Virus record (IMG/VR): IMGVR_UViG_3300037400_001617
Direction: 5' to 3' (one strand)
Length of the DNA stretch: 64,000 bases
DNA from: a virus
Taxonomy: Duplodnaviria > Caudoviricetes
The notes under the pieces were generated by a model. The model was given only the letters and a program-made list of their open reading frames with translations, made no database searches and was not told where the DNA came from. Position numbers and translations under genes: made by a program. How positions within the stretch are numbered: the first letter of the stretch is position 1; each line of letters starts with the position of its first letter. Of the stretch, positions 9,514-36,279 are shown in pieces.

Positions 9514-9858
9514 TTAGTCCCAGCCGTAGCGATGTGCTCTACGGCGGTCTGCTTCAGCTCTTCTGCGCTGCTTATCGCTAGCGCAAGTCCTTACTAATCT
9601 GTAAGGGTAGGTGTTTGTTGGAGTCTGTACTACTACATAGTAGTACTCTTCATTTACCATTCTTACCCCGCCAGGAATATTTTCCTTAACTTCATCAGGA
9701 AGGTCTGCTCCAGACACTATAGTTAATTCAGAAATAGGCTCTTCGCCTGTAAATTCTGTCTCGTGTCTGAGGGTTCTTCCGAACCTTCTTGCCTCTTCAT
9801 CGGAGATAACTGCCTCTCTCCAGTCTGTGGTTGTAATGTAGTTAATATGATTAATCAT
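9514..9858 (-). CDS. Orphan protein (114 aa) with Arg-rich C-terminus
   Basis: Start re-assigned to the ATG at 9858 after SD GAAAGGAG; the upstream part of the track ORF is structured leader. Confidence 0.65.
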   Translation of the reverse strand: MINHINYITTTDWREAVISDEEARRFGRTLRHETEFTGEEPISELTIVSGADLPDEVKENIPGGVRMVNEEYYYVVVQTPTNTYPYRLVRTCASDKQRRRAEADRRRAHRYGWD

Positions 9859-9885
9859 ATGAACTCTCCTTTCATATAAAATGAT

Positions 9886-10105
9886 GGTGGAGACTCCTGA
9901 CAGTCTCCACCGCTTTTCAACTAGACTCCTAACGTACCACCTATTAATCAGGATCATAGGTAGTAGGCTTTGCTCATTAGGAGTACCCATAGCGCTCGAC
10001 TAATAGCTCTTTCTGAGAGCCACTCGAACTATTAGCCGCTCGCACTCTAAATGTGATACAATCATTCGCTCAACTCTTAGAACAGAGAGAACTTAATCTT
10101 CTCAC
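9886..10105 (-). ncRNA. Candidate structured leader/ncRNA ending in a GC hairpin
   Basis: 12-bp stem 9998-10009/10026-10037; nested 10-bp stems 9925-9934/9975-9984 and 9935-9944/9956-9965; hairpin 9886-9895/9902-9911. Confidence 0.55.
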
Positions 10106-10111
10106 ACTATT

Positions 10112-10143
10112 ATAGTATACAGTTGTTTATGATTACTTTTACG
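10112..10143 (-). promoter_or_regulatory. Bipartite early-type promoter CGTAAAAGT-N15-TATACTAT
   Basis: Same boxes and 15-nt spacing as 19992-20023 and 36248-36279. Confidence 0.7.
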
Positions 10144-10204
10144 TATGTACATCTCTACCCAATCACCAACGATACAGTAATCAAAGAAGAAAGGAGCGTG
10201 CCAT

Positions 10205-11014
10205 ATGCCGCAAGATCTCTTTCGCAACTCTCAGATCTGTTCAATGGTAGCAGAGGGTGAGGTTGCCAATATCTTATCACATTTCGATTCTGATTATGTG
10301 ATGTCTGTAATTCACGATCACTTGGTTAATAGGTTCACCTACTCCAGTGCTGTGATGACTAAGCCAAACATAGTTGTATCATACAATATGACCTTCAGAA
10401 ACCTTGAGCAGATGTATCCTCTCGATGCACAGAACATTCGTGAGGTTGAGCAGGCATCGTATCAGGAGATCATAGATACAATCTGTCAATTCTATGGATT
10501 CCAGTTTGTTCCTCCAGCAGAGGACACTGATCTATTCACTATAGCACTCTATATGTATGAGTGCTTTGTATCAAAGTTCGACGCTTTCGTTTCTCAGTTC
10601 TATGCAAACTTTATCATGCTGAATAAGGATGCTCTTTGGGATGCACTTGAACTGGTGAACTACAAGAAAGATAAAGACGTTACTACAGTATACGGTAAGA
10701 AAGCATATGATGACATTAAGATGGCTATCATTTGTGCGAAGATGAATGAAGTCCTTTATTACCTTAAGGGTCTTGACATTGATCTCCCCACATATCTTCA
10801 GACATGCTATCCTATAGAGTATGCAAATCTCTTAGCAGATCATGTAAAGGGAGAGAACTTCTACGCAACGTTTATAGCAACTGCTATAGATGTACCTTCG
10901 GTAGTGACAGACATCAAACTCAAGATACACAATACATTGTGTACACAGAATGATATCTCTGTACTCATTCCTCAGCCAGAAGAGAATGGAGATACTACAA
11001 GTGAGGAGGAATAA
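10205..11014 (+). CDS. Hypothetical late protein
   Basis: 269 aa; SD AAGGAG; AACGatacagTA at 10168-10179. Confidence 0.75.
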   Translation: MPQDLFRNSQICSMVAEGEVANILSHFDSDYVMSVIHDHLVNRFTYSSAVMTKPNIVVSYNMTFRNLEQMYPLDAQNIREVEQASYQEIIDTICQFYGFQFVPPAEDTDLFTIALYMYECFVSKFDAFVSQFYANFIMLNKDALWDALELVNYKKDKDVTTVYGKKAYDDIKMAIICAKMNEVLYYLKGLDIDLPTYLQTCYPIEYANLLADHVKGENFYATFIATAIDVPSVVTDIKLKIHNTLCTQNDISVLIPQPEENGDTTSEEE

Positions 11015-11017
11015 TAA

Positions 11018-12703
11018 ATGCCTAGCAGTAAGAGAGGTTATGAGATAGACTTATCCCATGAGGGTGCATATACTACTGGTGATAAGACTATCTATGATGG
11101 TGCTGACCATTCAGCTGAAGTAGATCTTATCATTGGAGCTCTTGATGAACAGAGGAAACAGAATGCCGACAACCAGGTACTGGATCCTATCATTGGAAGA
11201 GCTCCAGAGATGAAAGGAAACTATAACGGCTTTGCAGCAAACGTTAACCCGTTAGAAGCAGAGAGAATTATCGAAATGGACGAGATGGGAGCTCTCACTA
11301 GTGGAATAGTGAAGGGTCTTCTCAAGAATCCAGACGGAATGTCCATAGAGGATCTCGACTACTTCACAAAAATACAAGAAGCAAACGCAAAGTACAATAA
11401 GGAGGATATGGCAATGGCCGAAATGGAACAGAACATTCAGAAACAGATCAATGCAGAAGGATTCGATACTATGGAGGGCTTTATGGAAGCCAGTATAATG
11501 GCTGACCTTGGTAAGGTAAACTCCAGAATCCAGGATGCAGAAGATCCCAATGCAGTAATTGATGTAGATGAGGAGGTAAAGGAGGACGAGTCCGAAGTGT
11601 TTCCTGAAGAGTCAGTCGACACTGAAGCTACTGAGTTTACTCCTGAAGTCGGCACTGTTGAGAGTCTTGGCGAAGCTATTCAGGTGAATGATGATATGGA
11701 ACCCGTAAAGGTTGCTGAAGAGCAGAAAGCTCCTATAACGGATGAAGATCTCGAGGACGTTCCTGTATCTTCACTCGAAGTTACAGATGAACAGGTTCTT
11801 ACAAACATGCATAACATCGTCGGCGAGGGAATCTCTGATAATGATGCTATGGCTCTCATAGATATTATGAGACGCTACAAAGCAGGAGAGAAGTTCTCTG
11901 TATTCAATGCTCTCCCTGAGTCTATCAAGATTCAGATTCGTAAGTCAGCTTCAGAGACTGGAGAAGCTCCGAGACATGCTATTCTCGAGTTCTTTGCTAA
12001 GAACCTTATCAATGATATCATCTCTGATGCTTTCATGAGTACCGAGATCAATAACTTCCAGGAAGAGTTGAATACATATGCTAAAGCTGCAGGTAATGTA
12101 ACTGGTGTTATCGTCGACTCTTATACCGATGAAGTAAAGGAGAAGTTTGAGACTGGTCTTCTTGAGACAGCCGATAAGATTCAGGAGGCTAATCCTGAGA
12201 AAGCAGAAGAGCTCAGAGAGATCGCTAAGTACTTTCGATACACTCACACTCTCGAACTCGTCAAGAAGCATATCGAGAATGGTGGAGACACTTATCTCAA
12301 CCGCTGCTATAAGAAGTCGCGTAAGATCAAGCAGTACACAGCATCCTTCAATGCTTACTATGAAGGTACTGTACCGAAGATCAGAGACATCGAAACACTT
12401 GCTATCCCCTTCCGTCAGTTAATGGTGGATGAAGAGACAGCTGAGACACTCATAGTAATGCTTGGTGATACTTGCTATGAACAGCCTAAGGGTTCACTCG
12501 TAGGAAATATCTATGCATTCTATCTTCTCACTGGTATAATGAATATCGCTATGTCTGCAGACACTAGTGATACTATCCGTGAGATCAGAAACAATATCGC
12601 TGTTATCGTGTCACAGGTTCGTCAGTTCCTCAACAGAAGACTGAAGGACTCCAAGTACGGCGGTGGTAAGAAGAGAAAGAAGGGTAAGAAAGGGAAGCGT
12701 TAA
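11018..12703 (+). CDS. Hypothetical acidic protein with basic C-terminal tail
   Basis: 561 aa; acidic disordered N-half; ends GGGKKRKKGKKGKR. Confidence 0.75.
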   Translation: MPSSKRGYEIDLSHEGAYTTGDKTIYDGADHSAEVDLIIGALDEQRKQNADNQVLDPIIGRAPEMKGNYNGFAANVNPLEAERIIEMDEMGALTSGIVKGLLKNPDGMSIEDLDYFTKIQEANAKYNKEDMAMAEMEQNIQKQINAEGFDTMEGFMEASIMADLGKVNSRIQDAEDPNAVIDVDEEVKEDESEVFPEESVDTEATEFTPEVGTVESLGEAIQVNDDMEPVKVAEEQKAPITDEDLEDVPVSSLEVTDEQVLTNMHNIVGEGISDNDAMALIDIMRRYKAGEKFSVFNALPESIKIQIRKSASETGEAPRHAILEFFAKNLINDIISDAFMSTEINNFQEELNTYAKAAGNVTGVIVDSYTDEVKEKFETGLLETADKIQEANPEKAEELREIAKYFRYTHTLELVKKHIENGGDTYLNRCYKKSRKIKQYTASFNAYYEGTVPKIRDIETLAIPFRQLMVDEETAETLIVMLGDTCYEQPKGSLVGNIYAFYLLTGIMNIAMSADTSDTIREIRNNIAVIVSQVRQFLNRRLKDSKYGGGKKRKKGKKGKR

Positions 12704-12749
12704 TGCTTCCCAAACTATCCTATAATCTATAAATAGGAGGTTCACTTCA

Positions 12750-13172
12750 ATGGTAAACGAAAAAGGTAGCTTAACTTTTCTGAAGACTGATGCACAGTGT
12801 TTCTTTCAGCTTCAGTTAACAGTATGGAACCAAACTCCTAAGGGAGCTAAAGGAACTATCTTTCAGGTAAGTTCGCTCAACGAATATCAGATCGATGTCA
12901 TCAGTGATGAAGCACCTGGTCTGAAGACATACAACTGCAGAATCGTAGGATTCACTATGAGAAATCGTCCTGACTATAAGGGCTTTGTTAACTACGATAA
13001 AGAAACTAACCAGGCTAAGCTTGCAGAAGTAGATACTATCAAGATAGACTACTCCGAGGACGGCAAAGCTGGTGTTACTAGCATCAATGTATGCGACATT
13101 CGTGATATCAGATTAACCTATGCTCCTGGACAGGACTTTGAAGTTATAAGAGATATCAAGGATTTCAGATAA
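12750..13172 (+). CDS. Hypothetical beta-rich protein (paralog of 3139-3471 and 3527-4195)
   Basis: IKIDYS...INVCDIRDI; AACTatcctaTA at 12713-12724. Confidence 0.7.
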   Translation: MVNEKGSLTFLKTDAQCFFQLQLTVWNQTPKGAKGTIFQVSSLNEYQIDVISDEAPGLKTYNCRIVGFTMRNRPDYKGFVNYDKETNQAKLAEVDTIKIDYSEDGKAGVTSINVCDIRDIRLTYAPGQDFEVIRDIKDFR

Positions 13173-13184
13173 GGGGTGATTGCG

Positions 13185-13745
13185 ATGGCCAAGTTCTACA
13201 ATGCTGATGGCACTATCACATCTACCGATAAAATCCTTGACGAATACTATAAAAGGAAAGGTACACCGATGGACTATAATGACTATCTCGGCAGTGATGC
13301 ACTTGAAGAGACTTCCAAAGATACAGGTTCTTGGAAGAAGGTAATCACTGGTACAAAAAGAAACAGCGACGGTACACCGAATATGGGTGACGTATCAGAC
13401 GGCTACCATACATTCGATGAACTCTACGAACACAGAAGCATTCTGTTCTTAGCATTACTGCGTTCTATACAGGATGTAAATGAGTTCGCTGAGTATGAAA
13501 GCCTTCATATTTCTGCACATCCATGGTACTCTAAACAGCATGAAGATGGAACTATGTTTCCTGGAATGTTCATTGCTGGTATGAGTACTGATTATGGAAG
13601 TGTAACATATCACTTCGACGAAAAGTATCTCCCCTTATTCGAAAAGGCTGAGATTGAGTACTTGGAGAGAGCACCTAAATGGGACGGCCACACTCCACAG
13701 GATGGACTTGAAGTTATAAAGTCTCTATTCTGTGGAAACGAGTAA
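13185..13745 (+). CDS. WDGH-motif phage protein
   Basis: SDGYHTFDELYEHR..LF, W.SK.H.DG, TYH and APKWDGHT are the signature of a widespread phage family. Confidence 0.75.
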   Translation: MAKFYNADGTITSTDKILDEYYKRKGTPMDYNDYLGSDALEETSKDTGSWKKVITGTKRNSDGTPNMGDVSDGYHTFDELYEHRSILFLALLRSIQDVNEFAEYESLHISAHPWYSKQHEDGTMFPGMFIAGMSTDYGSVTYHFDEKYLPLFEKAEIEYLERAPKWDGHTPQDGLEVIKSLFCGNE

Positions 13746-13763
13746 CTAAGAGAGGTTAGTTGT

Positions 13764-13910
13764 ATGGGAATGTATACCGAAGCAGAGATTTCTGCTACTT
13801 TAAGACACATAGATGACGAGCTGCACAATATCAATCTCAATCTTATAGAGTTGATCAAGGCGGTTCGTTCTATAAATGAAACTAAGAAAGAGGTAAACGC
13901 ACATGAATAA
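13764..13910 (+). CDS. Small coiled-coil protein (48 aa)
   Basis: Not in track; SD AGAGG; MGMYTEAEISATLRHIDDELHNINLNLIELIKAVRSINETKKEVNAHE; fills the gap and overlaps the next start. Confidence 0.6.
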   Translation: MGMYTEAEISATLRHIDDELHNINLNLIELIKAVRSINETKKEVNAHE

Positions 13911-14784
13911 GAACAACATTTCACCCACAGGCATCATGGCAACTTTTGCCAACATTGTCTCCTTTCTCATAGGAGCATACAACAAGGATAACGAATTCGA
14001 CGTTAAGAAGGACTTCGTTGACCAGGTCAAGGGATACAAGAACTTTCTTGCAGATCAGAACTGGGATGCTACTACTCTTACTGCTGAAGAGATCACTGCA
14101 TTCGGCGGTCTCAGAATAAAACCAGAGGAAGATCTCTTCTTTATTCCTCCTTGGCTCGTAGAGTTCCTTCCTGAGGACTTCCAGCTTATTGACATAGAGC
14201 TTGGTACAAACGCTCACGTTGTAGTAAAGGATATAGACAGGGAAAAGCTCTGGAGCACGGATACAAACGACTACGGTGTCACCAAGTATGCTATTCAGGC
14301 AGTCTCAGAGTCTGACTTTAAGTCAAATAAGGGACTTATGTTCTCTGAAGCTCTTAAGCTGATCACTGATCCTAATAAGGATGGTATGATTATGAGACTT
14401 CCTAACTGGCAGCCCGATGTGTTCATCAAGACTCAGTGGACTGATGAGAACAGTAAGATGACTCATCCTTACCTTTACGTAACCAGCAGATTCGGCTGTG
14501 TTCCGTGGAAGGAAACTGTACCTGAGATGTTCAGCTGTAAGTGGGAAGTATATCAGGAGGACTACTATAACGAAGTAGTAGAAGAGATGAAGAAGCAGAA
14601 GGAAGAGCTCTTCCAGAAGGCTGTACAGCAGAACTTAGCAGCTAACGGTGGTAGGGGTGTAAACGTAGAGCAGATCGGAAAGGATCTTCTTGAGGGACTC
14701 ATGCAGAAGCCTGAAGAGAAGAATGACGGCTGCGAGTGCGATCCTGAAATCGACGCTACTCATTCTGACGAAGTAGATAAATGA
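13903..14784 (+). CDS. Two-domain protein containing a DUF2829/Tad2-like domain
   Basis: MFSEALK...MRLPNW...F...PYLY......VPW......MFSCKW matches the DUF2829 pattern M.F.EAL..K...R..W...PY...VPW......DW. Confidence 0.7.
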   Translation: MNKNNISPTGIMATFANIVSFLIGAYNKDNEFDVKKDFVDQVKGYKNFLADQNWDATTLTAEEITAFGGLRIKPEEDLFFIPPWLVEFLPEDFQLIDIELGTNAHVVVKDIDREKLWSTDTNDYGVTKYAIQAVSESDFKSNKGLMFSEALKLITDPNKDGMIMRLPNWQPDVFIKTQWTDENSKMTHPYLYVTSRFGCVPWKETVPEMFSCKWEVYQEDYYNEVVEEMKKQKEELFQKAVQQNLAANGGRGVNVEQIGKDLLEGLMQKPEEKNDGCECDPEIDATHSDEVDK

Positions 14785-14911
14785 ATAGCTGAACTGGAGT
14801 CAGGATTCGCTAAGCAAGAGAGCATCGTGACTAACCAGTTCGAAGAAGACTTCTTTTATCCAAGCTTCGACAGTGAGATCACTTCGCAGTTCATCTGACA
14901 AAAAACAAACG

Positions 14912-14933
14912 GGAGGGCGCATAAGCGTCCTCC
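14912..14933. terminator. Bidirectional terminator-like hairpin
   Basis: GGAGGGCGC-ataa-GCGTCCTCC with an A-tract before and a T-rich tract after; lies between convergent genes. Confidence 0.65.
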
Positions 14934-14943
14934 TATATTTTGT

Positions 14944-16488
14944 TTACTTCATAGACACTACATGGTTCTTAACCACGATGTGATTAGAACATATAGTGTC
15001 AAATCCCTCGTTGTGAGAGATTACCATGAGTGTGCTATGACACTCACGGTTGATAAGATCTATTGCCCTGTTTCTGTTTCTCTCATCAAGGTTTGACGTA
15101 ACCTCATCAAGAATGAAGATCTTGTTTGGGTTGCGTCTCATCTCGACTATTGTCCTTGCAAGCAGCACGCGCTGCTTGAGACCTGTTGAAAGCTTGAAGC
15201 CCTTTGATCCAACAGGGCAGTCGAGAAGCTTATCGATCTCTACTGGAACGCCTTCAACTCTGAAAGCGTTTCTAAGATCGTTAAGCATATCGAGTTCCTT
15301 AAAGATCTTGATGATCTCTTCATCAGTAACAGTCTCGTCACCAAATGTAACATTGTTTCTGAGACTATCATTCAGAAGAGTTGTCTCCTGGAATACATAG
15401 TATGTATCCAGATTTTCTGGGAGACCAAAGATCTCTTCAGACTTAATCGCACCAGCGATCAAGTTTCCGAAACTTGACTTGCCCTCACCAGATGCACCAG
15501 TGATAAGATATCTTTCACAGCGTCTGATACTGATGTTGTTCACAGTGAACTGAGCGCTGTCCTTCCCATAATCGAAAGAGCCAGATACTGTGAACTGAGA
15601 AGGCATAGAAATCTTCTCATCGTTATCGTTGCCTTCGAGAGCTTCAATCTGCTTGGTAGCAGCCTTAATTTTCGAAGTGTATGCAACGATATCGATGCAC
15701 TTGAAGATTGCATTGTAGATTACATATTCGTTAATGAATACATAACCTAAAGTCTCCTTGTCCCATCTAAAGAAGTATGCAATGAAGCATACGGGGATAT
15801 AAGAGACAGCCTGGCACAGACCGAACCAAGCTCTCTTCTTGATATTGGTACTGTACTTGTACGAGTCATCTGCTGCGTCAGCGACTCTGTTAAATAAGTA
15901 AGAGAACTTACTAGCGTACTTGAGAGTAAGTAAGTTCTCAAGACCATCAACAAGAACTGACTCCAGCTTAGCAGCAGCATCATGTTCGTTCTCGTTGAAC
16001 TTGAACTTTTCGTTGCCCCATAAGTACATAGCAGAGCTAAGTACGAAGCAGCTGAAAAGGATGACTATAGATGCAATGGAAGTACGGATCTTCCATATCA
16101 TAATAGCCATAGGAAGAATACAACTGAAACAGGATACGATAGTCACATATCTCTGTCCAGTGTATTCAGAGATCTTATTGATACTGTCGATGATAGTACC
16201 AACAGAGATCTTATTGATACTCTTAGTCTCAGACCAAGCCGACTTCTCAGTCAGTCTTGTCTTAAGATCAAAGTATACTGTTGAGCTAGCCTTACGACCA
16301 GCTGCATCTCTCGCTGTATCGAGAACGGCGAAAGCTACATTGCAGATGATGAGACCGATAAACAGTCTCTTACTGAATCCATTAGCAATGAGCTTTGAAA
16401 TCACAGTAGCGTTGGCAGTGTTCTGCAAGCCAACAAGGATGGTGAGGACCACCATTAAGATGGTCAGCATAGTTACTTTCTTCTTCAT
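14944..16488 (-). CDS. ABC exporter half-transporter (TMD + NBD fusion)
   Basis: Several hydrophobic segments; Walker A GASGEGKS; Q-loop VFQE; signature LSTGLKQR; Walker B FILDEVTSNLD; H-loop ISH. Start at the ATG after AAGGAGG. Confidence 0.9.
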   Translation of the reverse strand: MKKKVTMLTILMVVLTILVGLQNTANATVISKLIANGFSKRLFIGLIICNVAFAVLDTARDAAGRKASSTVYFDLKTRLTEKSAWSETKSINKISVGTIIDSINKISEYTGQRYVTIVSCFSCILPMAIMIWKIRTSIASIVILFSCFVLSSAMYLWGNEKFKFNENEHDAAAKLESVLVDGLENLLTLKYASKFSYLFNRVADAADDSYKYSTNIKKRAWFGLCQAVSYIPVCFIAYFFRWDKETLGYVFINEYVIYNAIFKCIDIVAYTSKIKAATKQIEALEGNDNDEKISMPSQFTVSGSFDYGKDSAQFTVNNISIRRCERYLITGASGEGKSSFGNLIAGAIKSEEIFGLPENLDTYYVFQETTLLNDSLRNNVTFGDETVTDEEIIKIFKELDMLNDLRNAFRVEGVPVEIDKLLDCPVGSKGFKLSTGLKQRVLLARTIVEMRRNPNKIFILDEVTSNLDERNRNRAIDLINRECHSTLMVISHNEGFDTICSNHIVVKNHVVSMK

Positions 16489-16550
16489 ATAAAGGCCTCC
16501 TTTCAACCTCAGTCAAATTTGTTATTAGAAGAATGATTATAACTACCTAT

Positions 16551-16558: not shown

Positions 16559-16606
16559 CAGCCCAAAAGCAGTAAGATGACGGGAGCACTTAAGCTCCCG
16601 CCACTC

Positions 16607-18973: not shown

Positions 18974-19048
18974 AATAACACCTCTTTCTGTAGTTGATAC
19001 AGTGGGCTCAATAGCCCTCTTTACGGAGATGTTCGACAAGAAAAAATA

Positions 19049-19068
19049 ACCTCCTGGTTAGAGGAGGT
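19049..19068 (-). terminator. Intrinsic terminator of the 19199-19804 cassette
   Basis: ACCTCCT/AGGAGGT stem followed by TATTTTTTC on the minus strand. Confidence 0.6.
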
Positions 19069-19198
19069 GTATCTAACTGATATACCGACGTTTGTGAGCT
19101 GTATATCATAGATACTAAATAGCGTAGATCATTCAGAAATGAGGACAGGAGGGCATAGTTTTATGGCTTTACCCTCCTTGATTTTCGGCCAGTTTTAT

Positions 19199-19804
19199 TT
19201 AGTCCTCTACTTCAGTTCCAGGGAGTCTTCCCTGGAAGAAGGAGAACTTATTTGCATCGAGACACCCGTAAAAATTACAGGAGTCTCCGTTATAGTTGAA
19301 GCATGCAATATTCCAGTACTTATCTGTGAGATGAGTAATGGATACTAAAAGAAGGCACGCAGCCTTCTTCATGATAAGCGGAATTGATTTCCACCATACA
19401 TTTACAATCTCATCCTCAAAGATTACTTCTGCCAGAGGTATCTCCTTAATGAAATTGTCCTTGGTGTTCTTCTCGATGGCCTGTACGCAAAGACCAAGGT
19501 CTGTCGAAAATCTTTTTGAAGTTACCACCGCTAAGGAGTTAATCACTCCATACGGATCCCCGTCTCTTATTGCGTCTATTAAAGTATCGATGCTTTTCGT
19601 AAAACTTACCCTGTTAAGGCACGAATCCTCAACAGGCTGTCCTGTTCCAGTTATATAATATTCCCCTGTTTCATGGTCGAACTTTGTTACAAGTTCGAAA
19701 AGAATAGACTTGATCTGTGCATTTGTGAATGTCTCTGCTGGCATTACTTTTGCGATCTCGTTTACTGCTGTAGCCTCATTAGCCTTCTTTGTGTTGTTTC
19801 TCAT
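19199..19804 (-). CDS. Orphan protein (201 aa) without an obvious SD
   Basis: Long ORF under a bipartite promoter, flanked by structured 5' and 3' UTRs. Confidence 0.6.
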   Translation of the reverse strand: MRNNTKKANEATAVNEIAKVMPAETFTNAQIKSILFELVTKFDHETGEYYITGTGQPVEDSCLNRVSFTKSIDTLIDAIRDGDPYGVINSLAVVTSKRFSTDLGLCVQAIEKNTKDNFIKEIPLAEVIFEDEIVNVWWKSIPLIMKKAACLLLVSITHLTDKYWNIACFNYNGDSCNFYGCLDANKFSFFQGRLPGTEVED

Positions 19805-19807
19805 AAT

Positions 19808-19985
19808 TCAAGCTCAGTAGGTGCTACACCTTTGACAGAGGTCAAGCTGAGCATAATGTAGTTTCCTTTGGAAACGCCCATTCATAGGGGCACACCCTTT
19901 TTCATGAATGCAGGGATCCTGCTTCTCCATGCAGGATCATAGAATTTTTGCATCCATGGTATGGAGTTAATCAATTCTCTCATAC
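19808..19985 (-). ncRNA. Candidate structured leader RNA
   Basis: GATCCTGC/GCAGGATC hairpin; CATTCAT/ATGAATG stem; three-way junction GCTCAG[TTGAC/GTCAA][AGGTG/CACCT]CTGAGC at 19812-19852. Confidence 0.5.
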
Positions 19986-19991
19986 ACCTCA

Positions 19992-20023
19992 ATGATATAC
20001 AACCATCTTAGCTAACTTTTACG
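19992..20023 (-). promoter_or_regulatory. Bipartite early-type promoter CGTAAAAGT-N15-TATATCAT
   Basis: Second copy of the bipartite motif. Confidence 0.7.
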
Positions 20024-20086
20024 ATAGCCACTACATATATATAATCAGTGCCTACACGGGCACTTAAAATAAAGGAGGACACACAT

Positions 20087-25521: not shown

Positions 25522-27207
25522 ATGATACAGCCAACAACAATCAACAACCCTTACGCCTACTATAACTTCTTACACCCGCAGAAGTATAATGTAGTAGGAA
25601 TCGCCAATGATGAACAAGCAATCTATAATCTGTTCACGTATTTCGAAGTCCCACATTGGGTATCTATCGATAACTGGCTACAAACAGATGATGACATGGT
25701 GTTCTATACAATTAAGAACGCTATAGTCATGCCAACGATCTCTGAGTTCTTTGGAATGAACCCAGCAGATCCAAACACAATAAACGTTAATTCGTTTATG
25801 GTAACTCCTAAGAGGTGTTACAACGGTGACGATCTGCGTCAGCATATCTGTCACTATCTCAATTACTTCTGCAAGTTCTATGATCCTGATAAAGAGCTTG
25901 CTAGTCATTATGTGCGTATGAAGCACATGATTGACTTTGGACTCACCACACTTACTGGTGAGAGACATCCGTATAAAAAGGAAGAGTTTATACTCGACAT
26001 CCGTCGTTATATTCTTGGATCTACTATGTGTGCTAAGGTAGCTAAGATGAACGAGGACAACTACTCGCTCAAGCTTAACTATAAGAACAACACAAACCAG
26101 GCTCTTCAGTATAATGATACGCATGGTAAGATATTCATGGAGATTAGTGTGTTCATGAATATGCTTATCCCTCTCGTGAGTCACTTTGTGTATAAGTCTA
26201 AGATGACTTCGACACAAGAGATAGACGAACTCTTTCAGACTGTATATCAGTTTCTCTTTGATCGTTATATAAACACTGTAGATCTAAAGGCTAAGCTGTT
26301 TGAGACAGCCAACACGACGATCGCAAGAGATCAGAGAACTAACAAGGATCTTTGGGACAAGAGTGAGATAAGAGGTATGGATATCTCTGTCAACTCTCTC
26401 GATGCTGTAGATACACTTGTACTTCAGGTAATGCCTAAGTACAAATATAACCAGAATATGGTTATGTATAACTTCACATCGATTAGAAATACTGCTATCC
26501 AGTATGCTGTTGGAATAGCATATGAGTATGATTTGGTTCCACTCTCTTCCTCTAAGAGAGATGGTGAAGACTCTACTTCTCAGTTTGATAAGTTTGAGGC
26601 TACACTTGGTAAGGCTGATGAAGCAAAGTTCCTACATAACACTGCTGTCGCTTACACTGTTATGAGGAACATCGAAAGTCATTATGGTCCTTTCCCACAG
26701 GACATGATAGACTTTTACAAGATAGAACTCGGAAAAGGTGCTAAACCCGTCATTAACTCTTTCCAGTATAAACTTATAACAAACTTCTTCGGAAAGCTGT
26801 TTGGATCAGTACTTCCGATGAAGACTATTAATCTTGATGAATACATCGAGCTTATGATATCCACCAAGAAGAATCTCGTAGCTCAGAACTTCTGTATTCT
26901 TCCTGAGATTATTGCTGGAAGAGTAGTAAAGCTTTCAACAAGAACTGTTCTCAGTAAGAAGCATGAAGATATGCTTACTAGCAGTGAGCATTGGGCTCAG
27001 ATAAGACACAAGTATATGGACAATCAGGTGATACTTTCTCGCATCAAAGCTGATTTCGCTGCGTTGATATCTTCTGATTTCCAGCTCATCCGTTATGATC
27101 CTACAACTGGAAAAGGGGACCAGTATAACGGTCAGCCAATAATAATCAACTCTTCTATATCCTACAGGATTGTAGAAGAATTCTTATTATACGAGCTTAT
27201 GGTATAA
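25522..27207 (+). CDS. Candidate promoter-specificity (sigma-like) subunit of the non-virion RNAP
   Basis: 561 aa, helical-looking; TATACTAT at 25463-25470; two genes from the chaperonin, like AR9 gp228/gp226. Function inferred from synteny only. Confidence 0.4.
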   Translation: MIQPTTINNPYAYYNFLHPQKYNVVGIANDEQAIYNLFTYFEVPHWVSIDNWLQTDDDMVFYTIKNAIVMPTISEFFGMNPADPNTINVNSFMVTPKRCYNGDDLRQHICHYLNYFCKFYDPDKELASHYVRMKHMIDFGLTTLTGERHPYKKEEFILDIRRYILGSTMCAKVAKMNEDNYSLKLNYKNNTNQALQYNDTHGKIFMEISVFMNMLIPLVSHFVYKSKMTSTQEIDELFQTVYQFLFDRYINTVDLKAKLFETANTTIARDQRTNKDLWDKSEIRGMDISVNSLDAVDTLVLQVMPKYKYNQNMVMYNFTSIRNTAIQYAVGIAYEYDLVPLSSSKRDGEDSTSQFDKFEATLGKADEAKFLHNTAVAYTVMRNIESHYGPFPQDMIDFYKIELGKGAKPVINSFQYKLITNFFGKLFGSVLPMKTINLDEYIELMISTKKNLVAQNFCILPEIIAGRVVKLSTRTVLSKKHEDMLTSSEHWAQIRHKYMDNQVILSRIKADFAALISSDFQLIRYDPTTGKGDQYNGQPIIINSSISYRIVEEFLLYELMV

Positions 27208-29315: not shown

Positions 29316-29320
29316 GCTGA

Positions 29321-30370
29321 ATGACCAAAGAAGAACTCAAGGAATGGCTTCTTTATAATATGGAAGATGCTAAGCTTGCCTCTGGAGGTAAGCAAGTAGT
29401 ATGTAGATGTCACAACTGTGACGATCACAGCAGACATCTCTATATAGGCCCGTTCGATGATTCCGATAAACCTATTCAGTATCAGTGTAAGAGATGTCCT
29501 AGACCGTTCTATGGAGTGGTCAATAGGGACTTTCTTGAGAGATATAGGACTGCTACTGCAGTACCAGAGGACGTTAACGAGGTTAACAAAGGTACTAACA
29601 AACATCGAAAGAGTATCAATGGTACTTCTAATAGAATCTATAATGTGAATAGGAGTTTCATTACAGACGCTCCACTCACCCAACAGAAACTAGCGCACAT
29701 CAACCAAAGGTTAGGGTTATCTCTAACCTACCAAGACTGTATCGATAACAAGATTATCTTGAATCTAGGGGATCTCTATAGAGGAAACCCATGGATTAAG
29801 AGTTTCACTCGGCATGAGAACATCGTACAACAGCTTGATAAGTACTTCATAGGCTTCTTATCACGTTCAAATGCTTCTCTCAACATGAGAAACCTTGTGT
29901 ATGAGAAGGGTGCAGTGTATGAAGGTATCGATAAGAAGTACGTAAACTACATTCTCTTCAACGAAGGAGTTGAAAATGACTACTATATACTCCCGACAAA
30001 TGTCGATCCTCTTCAGCCTATAGGACTTCATATAGCAGAAGGTCCATTCGATGTATTGGGAATCAAGTATAATGTAGTAGGTCCTGATGTTCCTAACCAG
30101 ATTTACATCGCTGGTAAGGGTAAAGCGTATGATAAGATCGTAGAATTCATCATAACTAGGTATGGATTCATGAATCTTACTCTTAACTACTATCCAGATA
30201 AGGATGTAAAGGACTACGAGATGAATAGAGTGGTGAATATCTTCAAACCATTCGGGTTTAAGCAGCTCGTATTTCGCAACACTTACGAAGGAGAGAAAGA
30301 CTTTGGAGTACCGAAGAACAGAATCATATGTTCTAAGTACACCATAGGTCTAGGGAGAAACAGCTTCTAA
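29321..30370 (+). CDS. DNA primase (Zn finger + TOPRIM)
   Basis: CHNCDD..HLYIG..CKRC zinc domain; AEGPFD, YPDKD and EKDFG TOPRIM motifs. Confidence 0.85.
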   Translation: MTKEELKEWLLYNMEDAKLASGGKQVVCRCHNCDDHSRHLYIGPFDDSDKPIQYQCKRCPRPFYGVVNRDFLERYRTATAVPEDVNEVNKGTNKHRKSINGTSNRIYNVNRSFITDAPLTQQKLAHINQRLGLSLTYQDCIDNKIILNLGDLYRGNPWIKSFTRHENIVQQLDKYFIGFLSRSNASLNMRNLVYEKGAVYEGIDKKYVNYILFNEGVENDYYILPTNVDPLQPIGLHIAEGPFDVLGIKYNVVGPDVPNQIYIAGKGKAYDKIVEFIITRYGFMNLTLNYYPDKDVKDYEMNRVVNIFKPFGFKQLVFRNTYEGEKDFGVPKNRIICSKYTIGLGRNSF

Positions 30371-30422
30371 CGGCTGTTTCTTTTTTATACACATTACATC
30401 ACTATAAACGGAGGAGATTGCA

Positions 30423-30845
30423 ATGCCACTGTATAACAAGTATCGTCAAGTTACGGATTTAAGTGAGTTGAAAGAACCACTTATGACAATAAACCAGTTC
30501 CAGAGACCTATAGAGTTGGAAGGAACAGATGCACAAATCTTGCTTATCGTGAGATTAATCTTATTAGATCCTGGTACTATACAGACACACCCTGATATGG
30601 GTGTAGGATTAATCTCTTTGTATAGATATACTGTAGACGTAGACCTTGATAAACTCAGAAACAGGATACAGGCTCAGATATCTAAATACCTGCCAATGTT
30701 TACTACGGTACAGGTAAGAGTTGATCTCAATGTAAACGAACACACTCTTTACATATACGTCGATTCAGACCAGCTTAATGCGCTCGTACCGTTTGATACA
30801 GAGAACTTGACTATTATCCAAGGTCTCGACAATATGAAAGTATAA
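30423..30845 (+). CDS. Baseplate wedge / sheath initiator (gp25-like)
   Basis: LILLDPGT...HPDMGVGL and IQAQISKYLP match the GPW/gp25 pattern. Confidence 0.7.
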   Translation: MPLYNKYRQVTDLSELKEPLMTINQFQRPIELEGTDAQILLIVRLILLDPGTIQTHPDMGVGLISLYRYTVDVDLDKLRNRIQAQISKYLPMFTTVQVRVDLNVNEHTLYIYVDSDQLNALVPFDTENLTIIQGLDNMKV

Positions 30846-30865
30846 AAGTAAGGGAGGACACCACC

Positions 30866-32812
30866 ATGTCAGACGAGAACAAAAAGATTACTCTTGATGA
30901 TCTATCTAATGGTGCTAAACACACAGCAGCTATACCGCCACCGTTACCTAGATTAGACTCTAGAACAGTCAGAGATGTCAATATTGCAGAGGTAGCTCAA
31001 AAAGCTCCAGAACCAATGCAAGAAGATATGGTTCCTGGTGTTATCAAGAGCGCCATCAGTAAGATTCCAGCAACAATAGAGAGACTTAACAATGAGTCTC
31101 TTGCTATTGTACAAAAGGGACAAGAAGAAAGAATAGAGCAGATGCTCGACTCAGACGATGATGTCGAGATGCCTACCAATTCATCTACTCCTGCTGCTGT
31201 TCAGACATCAACAAACATTGTAAGACAATCGTTTGATGATGACGGAATAGATTTCGATGACGACGACACAGATGACAGTGATGATGATGTCGATTTTCCT
31301 GTCCCTGTGAAGACATACAATACCAAAGTAGAAAGGAAAGTAAACACTATGGAAAATAACAACACCCCTCAGACAGAACTCGATAAGAAGATTCATGCTA
31401 TTGCAGAAGCTGCAGTAGAAACACCTGAGAAGATTGAGTTTCCTGAGCCTACTGATACAGACAAGGAGAAGCTTGCTGAGAAGGTTCAGGAAGCATATGA
31501 GGCTGTAACAGGTGAAACAATCGGCGAAGAGACTAAGGAGGATGAGTCTACTACTGATGTGGAAGAGGAAGATGCTCCTGTTTTACCTCCGACAATTCCT
31601 TCATCCTCAGAAACAGACTTCGGTACTACTACATTCGCTATGTCAGATGACGATCTTGCTCTTCTTGATGATGAAGACATGATTGTTGAGAAGTCTGATA
31701 AGGCTAAAGAAGTCAGCGAAGCTGAAGAGAAGGAGAGACGTAACGCTCTCAGAGACTCTATCAGAATCTCTGTTAAGGAGAACTTCAAGCCTATCGATAA
31801 TAAGGTTGATCTTTCTAAGTTCGAGATTCAGAAGAAGCCTATATCTGCTTCTAAGGTGCTCAACCATATCAAGGAGACTCCTGTAAGAACGGCTACTACA
31901 CCTCTCTTCTCTACTTCTAAGAAGGTAATCGAAGTATCAGAGTTTACTGCTACAGAAATTCAGAAGCTCAACCCTGCTCTCATCAACCAGAATAACTTCT
32001 ATACAGCACTCAGAGATCGTTATCAGCTTCTCTATAACCACATCGTTGATCCTAACAAGCCTGCTACATTCGAAGCTTGGCTGAAGACAGTTCCTGAAGA
32101 TGCAATCGACGATTACTTCTTCGCTGCTTATAAAGCTACATTCGGTGCTGCAAACATTCTTACCTACGAGTGCCCTAAGGACGGATGCGACAACGTATTC
32201 CTTAAGGAAGTACCTGTTATGTCCATGATCAAGTATAAGAACGATGCTGTTAAGAAGGAGTATCTCGATCTTCTCCACAACGGCAAGCTCAACATCTCGA
32301 AAGATACTTACTCTGCTGGACTCTTCCAGGTCAGCGATGAGTACGTGTTCGCTCTCAAGACTCCTACACTCTACGAGAGAGTATTCGAGCCTACACTTCT
32401 CGACTCTCAGATTCTTGAGACTTATGGTCAGCTCATTACACTCATCACTTATATCGACGAAATCTATGTAATCGATCAGGCTAACAACAAGCTTATTCCT
32501 ATCGACATGCAGCCTGTTCATACAGATCCTCGTAAGACTGTAAGAAGACGTATCAAGACATGTGCTTCTATCATCAGAACACTTACATCTGATCAGCTTC
32601 AGACACTTACTGTCGAGACAGACAAGTATGATAAGCCCGATTCAAAGAGAAATCGTAACGACGATGACGACGAAGACACAACACCCGAGATCCAGTACAT
32701 TTATCCTGAGTGTGAGTGTCCTAAGTGCAGGATCAAGATCAAGGAAGCAGTAGCTGATCCTGTCGACATGCTTTTTACACGTCATCAGCTGGGAGTTTAT
32801 CAGCGGATATAA
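30866..32812 (+). CDS. Baseplate hub / tail assembly chaperone-like protein
   Basis: Acidic N-half; core with CPKDGC and CPKC pairs, and LK.PTL, as in gp26-like hub assembly proteins; adjacent to the gp25-like gene. Confidence 0.55.
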   Translation: MSDENKKITLDDLSNGAKHTAAIPPPLPRLDSRTVRDVNIAEVAQKAPEPMQEDMVPGVIKSAISKIPATIERLNNESLAIVQKGQEERIEQMLDSDDDVEMPTNSSTPAAVQTSTNIVRQSFDDDGIDFDDDDTDDSDDDVDFPVPVKTYNTKVERKVNTMENNNTPQTELDKKIHAIAEAAVETPEKIEFPEPTDTDKEKLAEKVQEAYEAVTGETIGEETKEDESTTDVEEEDAPVLPPTIPSSSETDFGTTTFAMSDDDLALLDDEDMIVEKSDKAKEVSEAEEKERRNALRDSIRISVKENFKPIDNKVDLSKFEIQKKPISASKVLNHIKETPVRTATTPLFSTSKKVIEVSEFTATEIQKLNPALINQNNFYTALRDRYQLLYNHIVDPNKPATFEAWLKTVPEDAIDDYFFAAYKATFGAANILTYECPKDGCDNVFLKEVPVMSMIKYKNDAVKKEYLDLLHNGKLNISKDTYSAGLFQVSDEYVFALKTPTLYERVFEPTLLDSQILETYGQLITLITYIDEIYVIDQANNKLIPIDMQPVHTDPRKTVRRRIKTCASIIRTLTSDQLQTLTVETDKYDKPDSKRNRNDDDDEDTTPEIQYIYPECECPKCRIKIKEAVADPVDMLFTRHQLGVYQRI

Positions 32813-33009
32813 GAAGAGCCGAACGGCTTACTAATAATGTATACAAGGGGAGGATATCGTTCATGGAACTCATGACGATGCCTCCTGCTTGGTTCAATGT
32901 TCTTTACATGATCGCTATTGAGAGACAAGAACAGCATGCTAAAGAATTGGCTGAGCAAGCCCAAGCTGATGCAATAGAAGAAGCAATTGAGGAAGGAGGA
33001 GCTATGTAA
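32758..33009 (+). CDS. -1 frame extension of the tail assembly chaperone, or an independent 48-aa ORF from 32863
   Basis: Stop-free -1 frame overlapping ATG CTT TTT AC (32768-32778); encodes ISFMELMTMPPAWFNVLY. Confidence 0.55.
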   Translation, partial: SCRHAFYTSSAGSLSADIRRAERLTNNVYKGRISFMELMTMPPAWFNVLYMIAIERQEQHAKELAEQAQADAIEEAIEEGGAM

Positions 33010-33010
33010 G

Positions 33011-33352
33011 ATGTGTATGATGGACATCTTAAGTCACTCTAAGAAAACTGCTTTAGATAACAAGGTTGATGTAGCGTACTATATCATCAACTATATCGAT
33101 CACGAGCTGATTACTTTCAATCTCATCAATCAGCTTGATAGAGAGTGTATAGATACCAAGATAGACACAGATGGTATCATCACTGTCACTTTCAAGACTA
33201 ACTCTACAGAAGACTATGAGTCCTTCAAGTCAGAGCTCTCTTCTCTGATCGAGAGTAATCCTACAGTAGAAGTATCAGGCAGTTTCTATAACCTAGCCTT
33301 GACAAATATCGAGAATGAAGTAGGAGTGACTATCTCCCCCTATACTACATGA
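33011..33352 (+). CDS. Hypothetical protein
   Basis: SD AGGAGG; start re-assigned. Confidence 0.65.
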   Translation: MCMMDILSHSKKTALDNKVDVAYYIINYIDHELITFNLINQLDRECIDTKIDTDGIITVTFKTNSTEDYESFKSELSSLIESNPTVEVSGSFYNLALTNIENEVGVTISPYTT

Positions 33353-33437
33353 TCGTTCATATAGAAGGTCCAGTGGAGTAAAATCCACTGGATTGCCTTT
33401 GTGAAACATCTATATAATTACGAAAGGAGGAATTTGA

Positions 33438-34649
33438 ATGAGCGGTAAGTTTATCAATAAATCCTATGTTAACACAATAGATGCCTTACAGCAAGGCCAA
33501 GTGAACAGGGTCAAGAATGCGAACTACCTCTTTAACGATAAAAAGCCAGTCATATCAGACTGGTATAATATGAACTCTACTGGCACTACATTCGATGAAG
33601 GTACTAGAGCAGAGTATGCTAGACTTAGTCATGCGTCTCCTATAAGATACAATAAGATTACTGGAGCTGTATTCTATGCTAGCGGAATCAAGCTTGCTAT
33701 GGATGTAGACTTCAATGAAGACGGTCTTGGACTTGCTTCTCAACCTGCTATATCTGGTACAGTACTTCCTAATACGTGGATCCCATATGCTGGAGACTAC
33801 TTCTCGATTCAACACGCTGGAAAGGAGTGGCTGTACAAGGTTACTGCTACATCGTTTGATACTATAGACAATGGTAACAACGTCTATAGCTTTGAGGCTA
33901 TGCTGGACAACTACGGTATAGATGAGATCGAGAGACAAGTAGTAGAGAGATACAAGTTTGTAGTAAACAATATTGGTACAAACTACTCTGTCGTTATCAA
34001 AGAAGAATCATACGATGCTATAGAGACTCTTGATAATCTTCTTTCCCAAATCAAGACGTACTTTGTAGCTCTGTTCTTCAAGGAAGCACTTCAGACCTTT
34101 GTGTATCCTGGAAAGTATGGAGAAGTCTATGATCCTTATATGATAGAGTTCCTTATGAGACATTCTATCCTTACTGGATCTGATCCATATATCTATGTCT
34201 CACAAGCTATACAAGTACCACAGACAATGATATTAGACTACGACAAGACTTTCTTCAAGGCTTTAGAGACTAAGTCTATAGATCGTTTCTGTAATCGTCC
34301 TGCCAATATCAATATCATTGAAGACATCTATAGTCTCTTCCATACTACACTTGTTAAATACTTCAAGGTCGACTATGCAGAGCCCATATTCCAAGGTGGT
34401 TATGCTATACTTGATCCAGTGATGATATCGGATGCTAAGGAAGGTATAGAGCGTCAGAATGATGATCCTAAAGCACTTAACAATATCATCACTCGTTACT
34501 TCCACGATAAACCTCTTGACTCATCGATTTGCGATATCTTTGACAATATAGATTATAAGCCTACGCCATATCTATTCTATGGTCTTCCGATGGCTCTGTT
34601 CTGTATTGAATCCCAGATACGTAATTTGATGAGCAGTTCAACATCTTAG
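33438..34649 (+). CDS. Putative neck/head-closure protein
   Basis: PYAGDYF...LYKVT resembles gp14-type head-closure proteins; AACAtctataTA at 33405-33416. Confidence 0.45.
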   Translation: MSGKFINKSYVNTIDALQQGQVNRVKNANYLFNDKKPVISDWYNMNSTGTTFDEGTRAEYARLSHASPIRYNKITGAVFYASGIKLAMDVDFNEDGLGLASQPAISGTVLPNTWIPYAGDYFSIQHAGKEWLYKVTATSFDTIDNGNNVYSFEAMLDNYGIDEIERQVVERYKFVVNNIGTNYSVVIKEESYDAIETLDNLLSQIKTYFVALFFKEALQTFVYPGKYGEVYDPYMIEFLMRHSILTGSDPYIYVSQAIQVPQTMILDYDKTFFKALETKSIDRFCNRPANINIIEDIYSLFHTTLVKYFKVDYAEPIFQGGYAILDPVMISDAKEGIERQNDDPKALNNIITRYFHDKPLDSSICDIFDNIDYKPTPYLFYGLPMALFCIESQIRNLMSSSTS

Positions 34650-34679
34650 TAACTAAATCCTACTTAAGGAGGGAAAATA

Positions 34680-35102
34680 ATGACTACTGACGTATTAACT
34701 GTAGATGACCTTCTGATTGAAGCGTGTGAAGAAGATGCTGAAATAGAAGAGGGTTACTTCACAGAGAATCTTAAGTTTATACTCGATAGAGATATAGACG
34801 AAGACATCAATAACGGCATGAACTCTATCTTTAATGGAGAGGGTCTTTCACTTGATGAAACTATCATCAATCTTGTTGATCGTCTTGAAACAGAAGTAAA
34901 CGATTCTGAATCTGGAGAAGCTAAACTTTACATAGCACCTGAAGATATACATGATCCAATCGAAGATGAGCTTCCTGGAAAGTTCAGTTCATCACTTTAC
35001 GATTGGGTAGACGAAGACGATCCTAACCAAGAGAGTGCTTGGTATGGAAATGATTCTGGTGACTACAATGTTGGATATGACTCTATATTCGGCGATAACT
35101 AA
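34680..35102 (+). CDS. Highly acidic late protein
   Basis: AACAtcttagTA at 34640-34651; D/E-rich. Confidence 0.7.
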   Translation: MTTDVLTVDDLLIEACEEDAEIEEGYFTENLKFILDRDIDEDINNGMNSIFNGEGLSLDETIINLVDRLETEVNDSESGEAKLYIAPEDIHDPIEDELPGKFSSSLYDWVDEDDPNQESAWYGNDSGDYNVGYDSIFGDN

Positions 35103-35116
35103 AGGAGGTACTAACA

Positions 35117-35491
35117 ATGGACGAATACATCAGAGATATCATAGACAGTAGACGTTCTCTTATTGTAGAACGTGCTGTGGATGAAGACCTTCAGGCTGAG
35201 AAAGAACTCAGTATTGAAGTCAATACTCTTGCTGGCAAGTTCGTAGACGGCTTTATAACCCAGGAAGAAATAGATAGCTGTCAGCTTACTGAAGAGGAGC
35301 TTAACAGCACACTCGACGACATCATAGATGATGCTGAAGCAAACGAACTCGCTTTATATGAACCTGAGACCTTCTCCGACGATGACGGAGAACTTTCAGA
35401 TATCAATGCTATACTTGACTCAGACATAGATCCTGAGCTTCTCGAGCTGGATGATGATGAGTCTATGTATTGCGAACCAAGCGTAGACTAA
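35117..35491 (+). CDS. Highly acidic late protein
   Basis: SD AAGGAGGT; D/E-rich. Confidence 0.7.
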   Translation: MDEYIRDIIDSRRSLIVERAVDEDLQAEKELSIEVNTLAGKFVDGFITQEEIDSCQLTEEELNSTLDDIIDDAEANELALYEPETFSDDDGELSDINAILDSDIDPELLELDDDESMYCEPSVD

Positions 35492-35506
35492 GGAGGTACA
35501 TGAAAC

Positions 35507-36028
35507 ATGAATATCATAAAAAAGAAGTGTATGCTCATTACACCTTGTAATGTCACATTCAGGACATCAAGCGGTAAAGAGATCAAGCCCAATACAAAGA
35601 GTATCGAATTCGTATTGACTAAGGAAATACTTGTAGCTATGAACAGCGGCATCAGAGTATTCGAGATCGGCTCAGACGGTAAGCAGGTTCAGCTTAATAA
35701 GAGCAACTTCGATAAGATCAATGTTCTTATGAACTATGATGAGACGGCAGAGGAGAAGGAAGCTCCTACAGAGGTGCCTGTTGGTCCTGTTAAGATTACA
35801 CCAGCATGGTTGAAGGGTGAAACAGATCATCCTGCAGAAGATAAGCCTAAGGAAGAGGAGACTGTAGATCCTGCAGAAGAGGAGTCACCTTCTGAGGAAG
35901 ATGAGGAAATCGACATGACCCCTCAGGAAGATCCTGAAGCTAAGTACTACGATACTGATTCCGATTCAAAGGACGACTGCGATGAGGAAAAAGAAAACGG
36001 CGAAGACGACGAATTCAACGTTGACTAA
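35507..36028 (+). CDS. Protein with a small N-terminal domain and acidic tail
   Basis: SD AAGGAGGT. Confidence 0.7.
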   Translation: MNIIKKKCMLITPCNVTFRTSSGKEIKPNTKSIEFVLTKEILVAMNSGIRVFEIGSDGKQVQLNKSNFDKINVLMNYDETAEEKEAPTEVPVGPVKITPAWLKGETDHPAEDKPKEEETVDPAEEESPSEEDEEIDMTPQEDPEAKYYDTDSDSKDDCDEEKENGEDDEFNVD

Positions 36029-36040
36029 TCTGCTCGACAA

Positions 36041-36074
36041 AAAAGAACACTGGGTTTGATCCCAGTGTTCTTTT
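36041..36074. terminator. Bidirectional intrinsic terminator
   Basis: Perfect 14-bp inverted repeat AAAAGAACACTGGG/CCCAGTGTTCTTTT. Confidence 0.8.
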
Positions 36075-36084
36075 CTTACTGTGC

Positions 36085-36153
36085 TTAGACTTGGACTTGT
36101 AGCACGTCTTCTGATGGAAATGCATATCCACCACAAGTTTCAAAATCGTCCAT
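36085..36153 (-). CDS. 22-aa acidic peptide MDDFETCGGYAFPSEDVLQVQV
   Basis: Perfect SD AAGGAGGT; own promoter (36248-36279) and terminator; anti-SD ACCTCCTT in the leader. Confidence 0.6.
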   Translation of the reverse strand: MDDFETCGGYAFPSEDVLQVQV

Positions 36154-36247
36154 TTTTAGCACACCTCCTTTCTTGTTAGCTATATGTCCCCTTTAAGGAG
36201 GTAGGGGATATATAAGACTACAGAATTCATTTTCTGTAGACATCTTA

Positions 36248-36279
36248 ATAATATATGCTTCTAAATGCGTACTTTAACG
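36248..36279 (-). promoter_or_regulatory. Bipartite early-type promoter CGTTAAAGT-N15-TATATTAT
   Basis: Third copy of the bipartite motif. Confidence 0.7.

Follow-up and report, generated by a model that had tools for sequence, protein, structure and literature searches.

Putative box-marked early promoters of AR9 type, with structured RNAs on part of them, in a jumbo phage genome

The window considered here is a stretch of 64,000 nucleotides (nt) of the IMG/VR virus record IMGVR_UViG_3300037400_001617. It carries genes for RNA-polymerase subunits, terminase, GroEL and virion proteins, and on this content its source is an AR9/phiKZ-like jumbo phage. The split beta/beta'-like polymerase subunits lie at 36310, 53030, 55251 and 25522, with two cross-matching beta'-N-type families in the window. 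The subunit encoded at 36310-38013 is ~30% identical to those of jumbo phages of Staphylococcus, Bacillus and Listeria, and 91-93% identical to those of six IMG/VR contigs; two of these, of ~230 kb, are the near-complete relatives G001 and G002 (92% polymerase identity), which served as comparison genomes. The host is probably a Firmicute, as judged solely from strong AGGAGG sites and from the nearest cultured phages; a genome scan for the host with the transporter of the ATP-binding cassette (ABC) type encoded in the window gave no match, and a tRNA search of the window found none. Our subject is three sites dispersed among these genes, each made of an upstream box, YGTWAAAGT, and a TATAYYAT core, and each heading a small unit with a leader and one open reading frame (ORF). 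A first-pass annotation, made from the letters alone, had placed them on the minus strand with a spacing of exactly 15 nt, and both coordinates and spacing are as it described:

10112-10143, minus strand: promoter of unit 1, box (-38 to -30), 15 nt and TATACTAT core; predicted +1 G at 10105; register as in the mapped starts of AR9
19992-20023, minus strand: promoter of unit 2 with box; predicted +1 G at 19985
36248-36279, minus strand: promoter of unit 3, with box variant GTTAAAGT; overlaps the terminator stem of the upstream gene; predicted +1 G at 36241

These are the sole matches to the bipartite motif in the window, even when 3 mismatches are allowed. The full motif occurred 0 times in 60 simulated windows, and for the box alone 0.65 occurrences are expected. 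The TATAYYAT core by itself is not enriched (27 seen, 34 expected), so that the other core sites are more numerous than the six first counted; about ten of them are intergenic and followed by N6-G/A. Taken with its position, the core fits the early consensus core-6N-G of AR9 (PMC5312081), and AR9 (TATATTAT-6N-G) is a closer model than phiKZ, which had been proposed at first. By sequence, all three belong to the AR9 type of virion-polymerase early promoter (TATAYYAT-N6-G+1) and have an additional box; given the predicted starts 10105, 19985 and 36241, this box lies at -38 to -30. At site 3 part of it lies in the terminator stem of the RNA-polymerase gene upstream. At 20018-20045 (plus strand) the reverse complement of box 2 gives a sigma-70-like TTTACG-16-TATAAT facing the divergent gene, which is not the case at site 1; a reading of the box as the -35 of a divergent promoter on the other strand was discarded, as it suits site 2 alone.

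The likeness to the early promoters of AR9, AAATATATATTAT-(6N)-G+1 (PMC5312081), comprises the -10 core, the 6-nt gap, the G start and a similar number per genome; like AR9, the window genome has paralogous beta/beta'-like polymerase subunits. However, the published AR9 consensus is without an upstream element, whereas a subset has a box at -38 here, and the leaders of the window are longer and far more structured than those of AR9. The early promoters of phiKZ and 201phi2-1 share an AT-rich extended -10 box, and the logos in these reports display conservation at -20 and -30 (PMC11512511, PMC8244752), which suggests that an upstream element is not unprecedented. In the parts of both reports on which this comparison draws, the upstream conservation is described within one motif with no timing sub-class, its sequence differs from ours, and no common leader module is reported. 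Of 6 core matches in phiKZ 1-30000, 3 (L205 2160, 2664, 4515) have a ATTCAAAC stretch upstream, about where the box would lie.

The scan of relatives that the first-pass annotation had proposed revealed the box in 17 related phages, with 2-13 copies in each. The viral-contig scan returned 62 stretches, mostly on contigs of 150-270 kb. Among 51 distinct viral matches, 41 have TG at -1/+1, although these positions lie outside the search pattern. Of 22 records, 17 encode a polymerase subunit homologous to that of the window (40-60% identity) and have 2-13 box copies, against 0-2 for the reversed control; as one copy per record is guaranteed by selection, the evidence lies in the further copies. 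Each near-complete relative of ~230 kb has about 40 intergenic core-6N-G sites, the box being present on just 8 of them in G001 and 5 in G002. Phage BpSp has 8 box promoters.

The link with timing comes from AR9, whose published start sites (Table S2) and levels, in fragments per kilobase per million (FPKM; Table S4), were re-analysed for the first gene behind each promoter (PMC5312081). CGTATY, a 6-mer with only 96 occurrences in the AR9 genome, stands in the same register in 10 of the 39 early promoters listed; nine copies start at -38, and that of g120 is at the same distance from the core. The median 5/20-min FPKM ratio is 1.16 for genes with a box and 0.21 for those without (Mann-Whitney p=3e-5), an effect which persists when the comparison is restricted to early-class genes, without a late rise (p=0.002). 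Six of the 10 box genes peak at 5 min versus 0 of the 28 box-less. At 5 min the median level is 304 FPKM with the box and 85 without (p=0.025); at 20 min the levels are equal. Finally, all eight genes published as "pre-early" (g048, g109, g111, g120, g169, g235, g289 and g292) are first or downstream members of runs headed by a box promoter. The authors considered RNA stability or polymerase affinity as possible causes, named no upstream element and left the cause open (PMC5312081); a review mentions no more than a motif of ~10 nt at -10 (PMC7598289). Our literature search found no report of an upstream element tied to timing, and a literal search of papers for the motif returned unrelated primer matches only.

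The proposal that the three units form a co-regulated immediate-early class is thus supported, since in AR9 the published pre-early genes go with the box in this register. The tie between box and timing is a correlation in one phage, which would carry over to the source phage by the register and the common YGTA. We regard it as very probable that the box is a functional promoter element, and as likely that it marks a pre-early class in the source phage as well. Besides, no other gene of the AR9 table comes near the 5-min FPKM of the 186-bp g283 (L189 3122-3307; 116,547), which closes the run of box promoter P292 and is possibly a stable RNA.

Downstream of the box, the leaders measure 247, 181 and 88 nt from predicted +1 G to ATG, close to the ~250, 185 and 90 nt first given, and the ORF lengths of 114, 201 and 22 amino acids (aa) hold. 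The leaders are indeed highly paired, with folding z-scores of -5.5, -3.6 and -6.6 (the third fold takes in the terminator), and in units 1 and 2 covariation shows selected RNA structures, with helices kept by compensatory change. Rfam covariance models gave 0 matches at E<=1 in the window and only sub-threshold matches in 20 related cassette loci. Likenesses to the T-box, group I intron R/S elements, hammerhead, guanidine-III, preQ1, NAD-II and signal recognition particle RNAs were set aside: their other defining parts are absent, and none has an Rfam match. By blastn against cultured phages, units 1 and 2 have chance matches only.

The 11-mer said to be common to leaders 1 and 2 is there, at 9949-9959 and 19932-19942 (expected 0.05); a third copy in the window lies inside a gene at 25878. 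This 11-mer is the core of a clade-wide module, YUAYG-N-UCC. Of 105 distinct box leaders, 35 have the module no more than 260 nt from the start, as against 0 of 100 box-less early leaders, for a background of ~2%. G-N-UCC is paired to a strand reading GGA-N'-C, in which N' covaries with N (A-U 16, U-A 7, C-G 4). The module stands in an internal loop (unit 2 and a G001 family), a hairpin or a pseudoknot (G015), usually with an A-rich stretch ahead. AR9 has it in the g292 leader, g292 being the box gene with the top 5/20-min ratio, and BpSp in 2 of its 8 box leaders; the phages bearing it range from 92% to ~30% polymerase identity. Being short, permutable, sequence-specific and placed beside a helix, it is most simply read as a protein-binding site, a function that we propose only tentatively. 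In G003 (L045-L057; 42% polymerase identity), one ~80-nt two-hairpin leader is repeated behind five box promoters with unrelated ORFs; this five-site family is without the CUAUG-N-UCC module. At L146 5120-5500 (plus strand), a box promoter is followed by more than 300 nt that are apparently non-coding and GC-richer, a candidate larger RNA.

The first-pass annotation saw one architecture, a structured leader, an orphan ORF and a terminator, repeated three times. The three units differ more than that: an RNA gene with an optional passenger, an mRNA structured at both ends, and a short-peptide mRNA. In relatives and in AR9, many box promoters have short plain leaders or stand at the head of operons. 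Unit 1 comprises:

9878-10105, minus strand: unit 1 RNA of ~230 nt, made of four domains, with a hairpin and U-tract of its own at the 3' end
9946-9959, minus strand: CUAUGAUCC module; the AUCCUGA stretch in its loop has its complement in the loop of the terminal hairpin (9893-9901)
9886-9911, minus strand: terminator-like hairpin upstream of ORF1, with 3 compensatory pairs
9514-9858, minus strand: ORF1, 114 aa, optional passenger

In six homologues, 17 pairs of this RNA have compensatory changes, as against 0 of 500 shuffles. A terminator is present in each unit, as first noted, except that the minus-strand one of unit 1 precedes the ORF; the hairpin after ORF1 has its U-tract on the plus strand. 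The RNA is whole and ORF-less in G002 and in a contig of run X1, which skips exactly 9507-9873, and it precedes an unrelated ORF of 156 aa in G001 and L143. Its conservation where the ORF is absent or swapped suggests that the conserved unit is the ~230-nt RNA, the ORF being a passenger. Unit 1 is probably a stand-alone non-coding RNA, and the earlier suggestion that RNA could be the functional product is supported, since unit 1 persists without its ORF in two relatives. The module loop and the terminal loop are complementary and conserved in 6 of 6 homologues with covariation absent, so a kissing interaction between them is possible. The structure model of ORF1 is poor, with a predicted local distance difference test (pLDDT) score of 55. 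Neither ORF1 nor ORF2 has a Pfam, PHROG or Atlas match. They are orphans as regards families, yet have 5 and 9 homologues respectively in close relatives.

Unit 2 comprises:

19805-19985, minus strand: leader of 181 nt, with a +1 hairpin, the CUAUGAUCC internal-loop module (19932-19942), two short hairpins and a 3' nested stem
19199-19804, minus strand: ORF2, 201 aa, mostly helical; no known family or fold match
19146-19191, minus strand: H-type pseudoknot directly after the ORF2 stop; third loop ends in AAAACUAUG
19040-19068, minus strand: terminator, ~75 nt past the pseudoknot, next comes, at 19022-19033, a site of late type (AACA-N6-TA) before the terminase gene

Among 11 leaders of this type, 11 pairs (44 cells) have compensatory changes, and in all of them the last stem ends 7 nt before the ATG; no Shine-Dalgarno sequence of ORF2 is recognisable. 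ORF2 is homologous at the same site in all relatives examined (26-86% identity). Its model (pLDDT 84) has no fold match in the PDB or among viral proteins (best Z 5.2), which does not in itself prove a new fold. In all 8 homologues every pair of both stems of the 3' pseudoknot can form, although stem 1 occurs in 3 main sequence versions and stem 2 in 5; in 6 of the 8 the last loop ends in AAAACUAUG. At 19809-19852 (minus strand) of the leader, a covarying stem of 3-4 bp closes a loop ending in invariant GUCAA, like an Asp anticodon loop; tRNA mimicry is not claimed, as most homologues have C at the U33-equivalent position. In L010, L011 and L145, GUCUCMUUU lies 3' of the ORF2 homologues and is complementary to AAAKGAGAC in the 5' leader, with a matched change in L010/L112; this complementarity is absent from the window's allele.

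Unit 3 comprises:

36154-36241, minus strand: leader with two hairpins, of which the second has a loop (36195-36203) complementary to the Shine-Dalgarno sequence 36162-36170
36085-36153, minus strand: ORF3, 22 aa; first ~nine codons conserved (MDDFETCGG-like), 10-22 aa in relatives
36039-36074, minus strand: bidirectional terminator at the end of the unit

Its promoter is conserved, and the complementarity of loop and Shine-Dalgarno sequence is retained in the 4 sequence variants seen. Since its box overlaps the upstream terminator stem and the module is absent, unit 3 is the weakest member.

Elsewhere in the window, 14944-16506 (minus strand) encodes a stand-alone ABC exporter (membrane part and ATPase) behind a box-less early promoter; at this locus in a relative, adjacent genes match the Tad2-like (weakly) and WDGH families. 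Sites at 19022-19033 (minus strand), before the terminase gene, and at 33405-33418 (plus strand), before a virion gene, fit the late-promoter consensus AACA-N6-TA taken from AR9 (PMC5312081).

Box units can move. G001 has three nearly identical cassettes, and comparison with G002 shows two of them to be clean insertions, of 521 and 649 bp. The 5' edge of each insertion is the box and its 3' edge its own terminator U-tract, the site being a T-run after an existing hairpin, with microhomology at the junctions. That the insertions begin at the box identifies it independently as the 5' edge of the unit. In G002, a unit-2-type leader with 1.1 kb of cargo is fused to another box promoter. At G001 127914 (minus strand), in L027, the box promoter of the same site drives only a ~55-nt hairpin RNA and a terminator. 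The three units of the window are at fixed sites in the close relatives examined, and the unit 1 locus has three alleles among relatives, by gene gain, loss or replacement at the element.

The first-pass annotation knew of no description of such an architecture; a related one is published, the PeSL cassettes (PMC2839356). In T4-type phages, these place a repeated early promoter and a stem-loop before unrelated ORFans, with gene gain, loss and replacement there (PMC2839356, PMC4122927). Like them, box units gain, lose and exchange genes at the element. PeSLs have a sigma-70 promoter and a terminator hairpin inside or upstream of it, whereas box units have a promoter of phage-polymerase type and their structure in the transcript; they are also few, dispersed among core genes, with junctions in terminator U-tracts. 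At site 3 and at the G001 insertion sites, a terminator stem-loop lies within the promoter or immediately before it; the box of site 1 has no such GC-rich terminator next to it.

A second comparison is with type I toxin mRNAs (hok, aapA), which have masked ribosome sites and a 5'-3' fold-back. Unit 3, with its short ORF and anti-Shine-Dalgarno loop, and those unit 2 homologues with 5'-3' complementarity resemble them. On the other hand, ORF3 is acidic, of variable length and not hydrophobic, and ORF2 is a soluble protein of 201 aa. No antisense antitoxin was identified, no systematic search for an opposite-strand promoter having been made.

Altogether, the explanation that we find best, and moderately likely as a whole, is that the box sites head pre-early units read by the virion polymerase and equipped with RNA-level elements. 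The virion-packaged RNA polymerase would read TATAYYAT (-14 to -7) and start at the G seven bases on, as the agreement with the mapped AR9 starts suggests. The YGTA element at -38 would offer an extra upstream contact to the few injected polymerase molecules, so that box promoters, in the source phage as in AR9, would be at full output in the first minutes while box-less ones are still rising. On the RNA, the +1 hairpin would most likely protect the 5' end from decay, and YUAYG-N-UCC, on about one third of the transcripts, would most likely bind a protein controlling the translation or lifetime of this class of messages. Unit 1 RNA, which carries the module, might then serve as a decoy or scaffold; the mRNA of unit 2 would have related elements at its 5' and 3' ends, and that of unit 3, encoding a peptide, a ribosome site that the loop can mask. 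Being self-contained from box to terminator, such units could insert whole at terminator U-tracts and swap their cargo genes, as seen in relatives.

Several points weigh against this explanation. Start sites and transcripts of the source phage are predictions, and the contigs from RNA libraries are flat in depth and possibly DNA. In Staphylococcus SA1 and Listeria LPJP1, a search for the AR9-spaced pattern gave no match. The AR9 box, CGTATYAAA, and that of the window, YGTWAAAGT, have only YGTA and the A-run in common, so that their homology rests on register. The AR9 evidence consists of relative FPKM at three time points, and a box gene of that phage, g108 (ratio 0.28), behaves as box-less genes do. 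As to the module, the 35 leaders bearing it are partly related copies and hence fewer independent cases, it is paired differently in unit 1, and it is lost in one homologue.

The pre-early peak could also be read as repression, the box being an operator bound by an early phage protein that shuts these promoters after the first minutes. Several AR9 box genes do fall from 5 to 40 min (g292, 776, 239 then 210; g234, 296, 156 then 84), and the box is on only a subset of promoters. Such an operator is nevertheless unlikely: box genes are already higher at 5 min and equal to the others at 20 min, and a fixed non-palindromic register, together with the exact 5' edge of inserted cassettes, fits a polymerase contact better. 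Another source of a first wave would be the host sigma-A polymerase, alone or with an injected factor, since TAYYAT at -12 to -7 resembles a sigma -10 and the box covers the -35 position. In AR9, the yield is ~tenfold lower in rifampin, both promoters tested in chloramphenicol (P087 and P104) are box-less, and the authors did not exclude host transcription of a few genes (PMC5312081). But the hexamer at -35 to -30 (AAAAGT here, ATTAAA in AR9) is unlike TTGACA, a sigma-70 -35/-10 scan of the minus strand calls neither site 1 nor site 2 (site 3 was not scanned), and the core is identical to that of box-less early promoters, so that we hold a host-driven wave to be very unlikely.

At the RNA level, the leaders might be riboswitch-like attenuators, in which pairing of the unit 1 module loop with the terminator loop gates read-through into the ORF by ligand or protein. 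The order leader, terminator, gene is that of Firmicute attenuators, the two loops of unit 1 are complementary in all six homologues, and two unrelated ORFs lie behind the same RNA. We give this reading little chance, for unit 1 RNA is fully conserved where the ORF is absent, no Rfam riboswitch matches, and the leader of unit 2 has no terminator. The common motifs could at last be hitch-hiking remnants of recent PeSL-like cassettes, kept for recombination rather than regulation, as near-identical leader families within single genomes and clean insertions might suggest. The box register and the CUAUGAUCC module, however, persist to AR9 and to BpSp, whose polymerase subunit is 31% identical, where the flanking leader sequence is unrelated, and helices are held by compensatory change, which leaves hitch-hiking hardly credible.

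If the box acts with the virion polymerase, as we prefer, what is new is probably a box-marked sub-class of virion-polymerase early promoters, likely a pre-early wave, part of which carries undescribed structured RNAs. No virion polymerase of the AR9/phiKZ-like group had been purified as of a 2020 review (PMC7598289), and the box offers a testable clue to how a packaged RNA polymerase chooses its first transcripts. One may go further and imagine, though we find it doubtful, that the virion polymerases of Firmicute jumbo phages, in which no sigma factor is recognisable, define their first wave by an element at the -35 position, with transcripts tagged by the module for one host or phage reader and unit 1 RNA as a decoy or scaffold for this reader during the first minutes of infection, possibly anti-defence. 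At least three undescribed RNA structures are defined here (unit 1 RNA, the unit 2 leader and the 3' pseudoknot), as well as a 9-nt module conserved from phages of anaerobic habitats to Bacillus phages. The box turns the cause of pre-early expression in AR9 into a question of point mutations in a culturable system, AR9 on B. subtilis. It would also provide a sequence rule to pick the earliest, fast-turnover genes, where host-takeover and anti-defence factors are expected.

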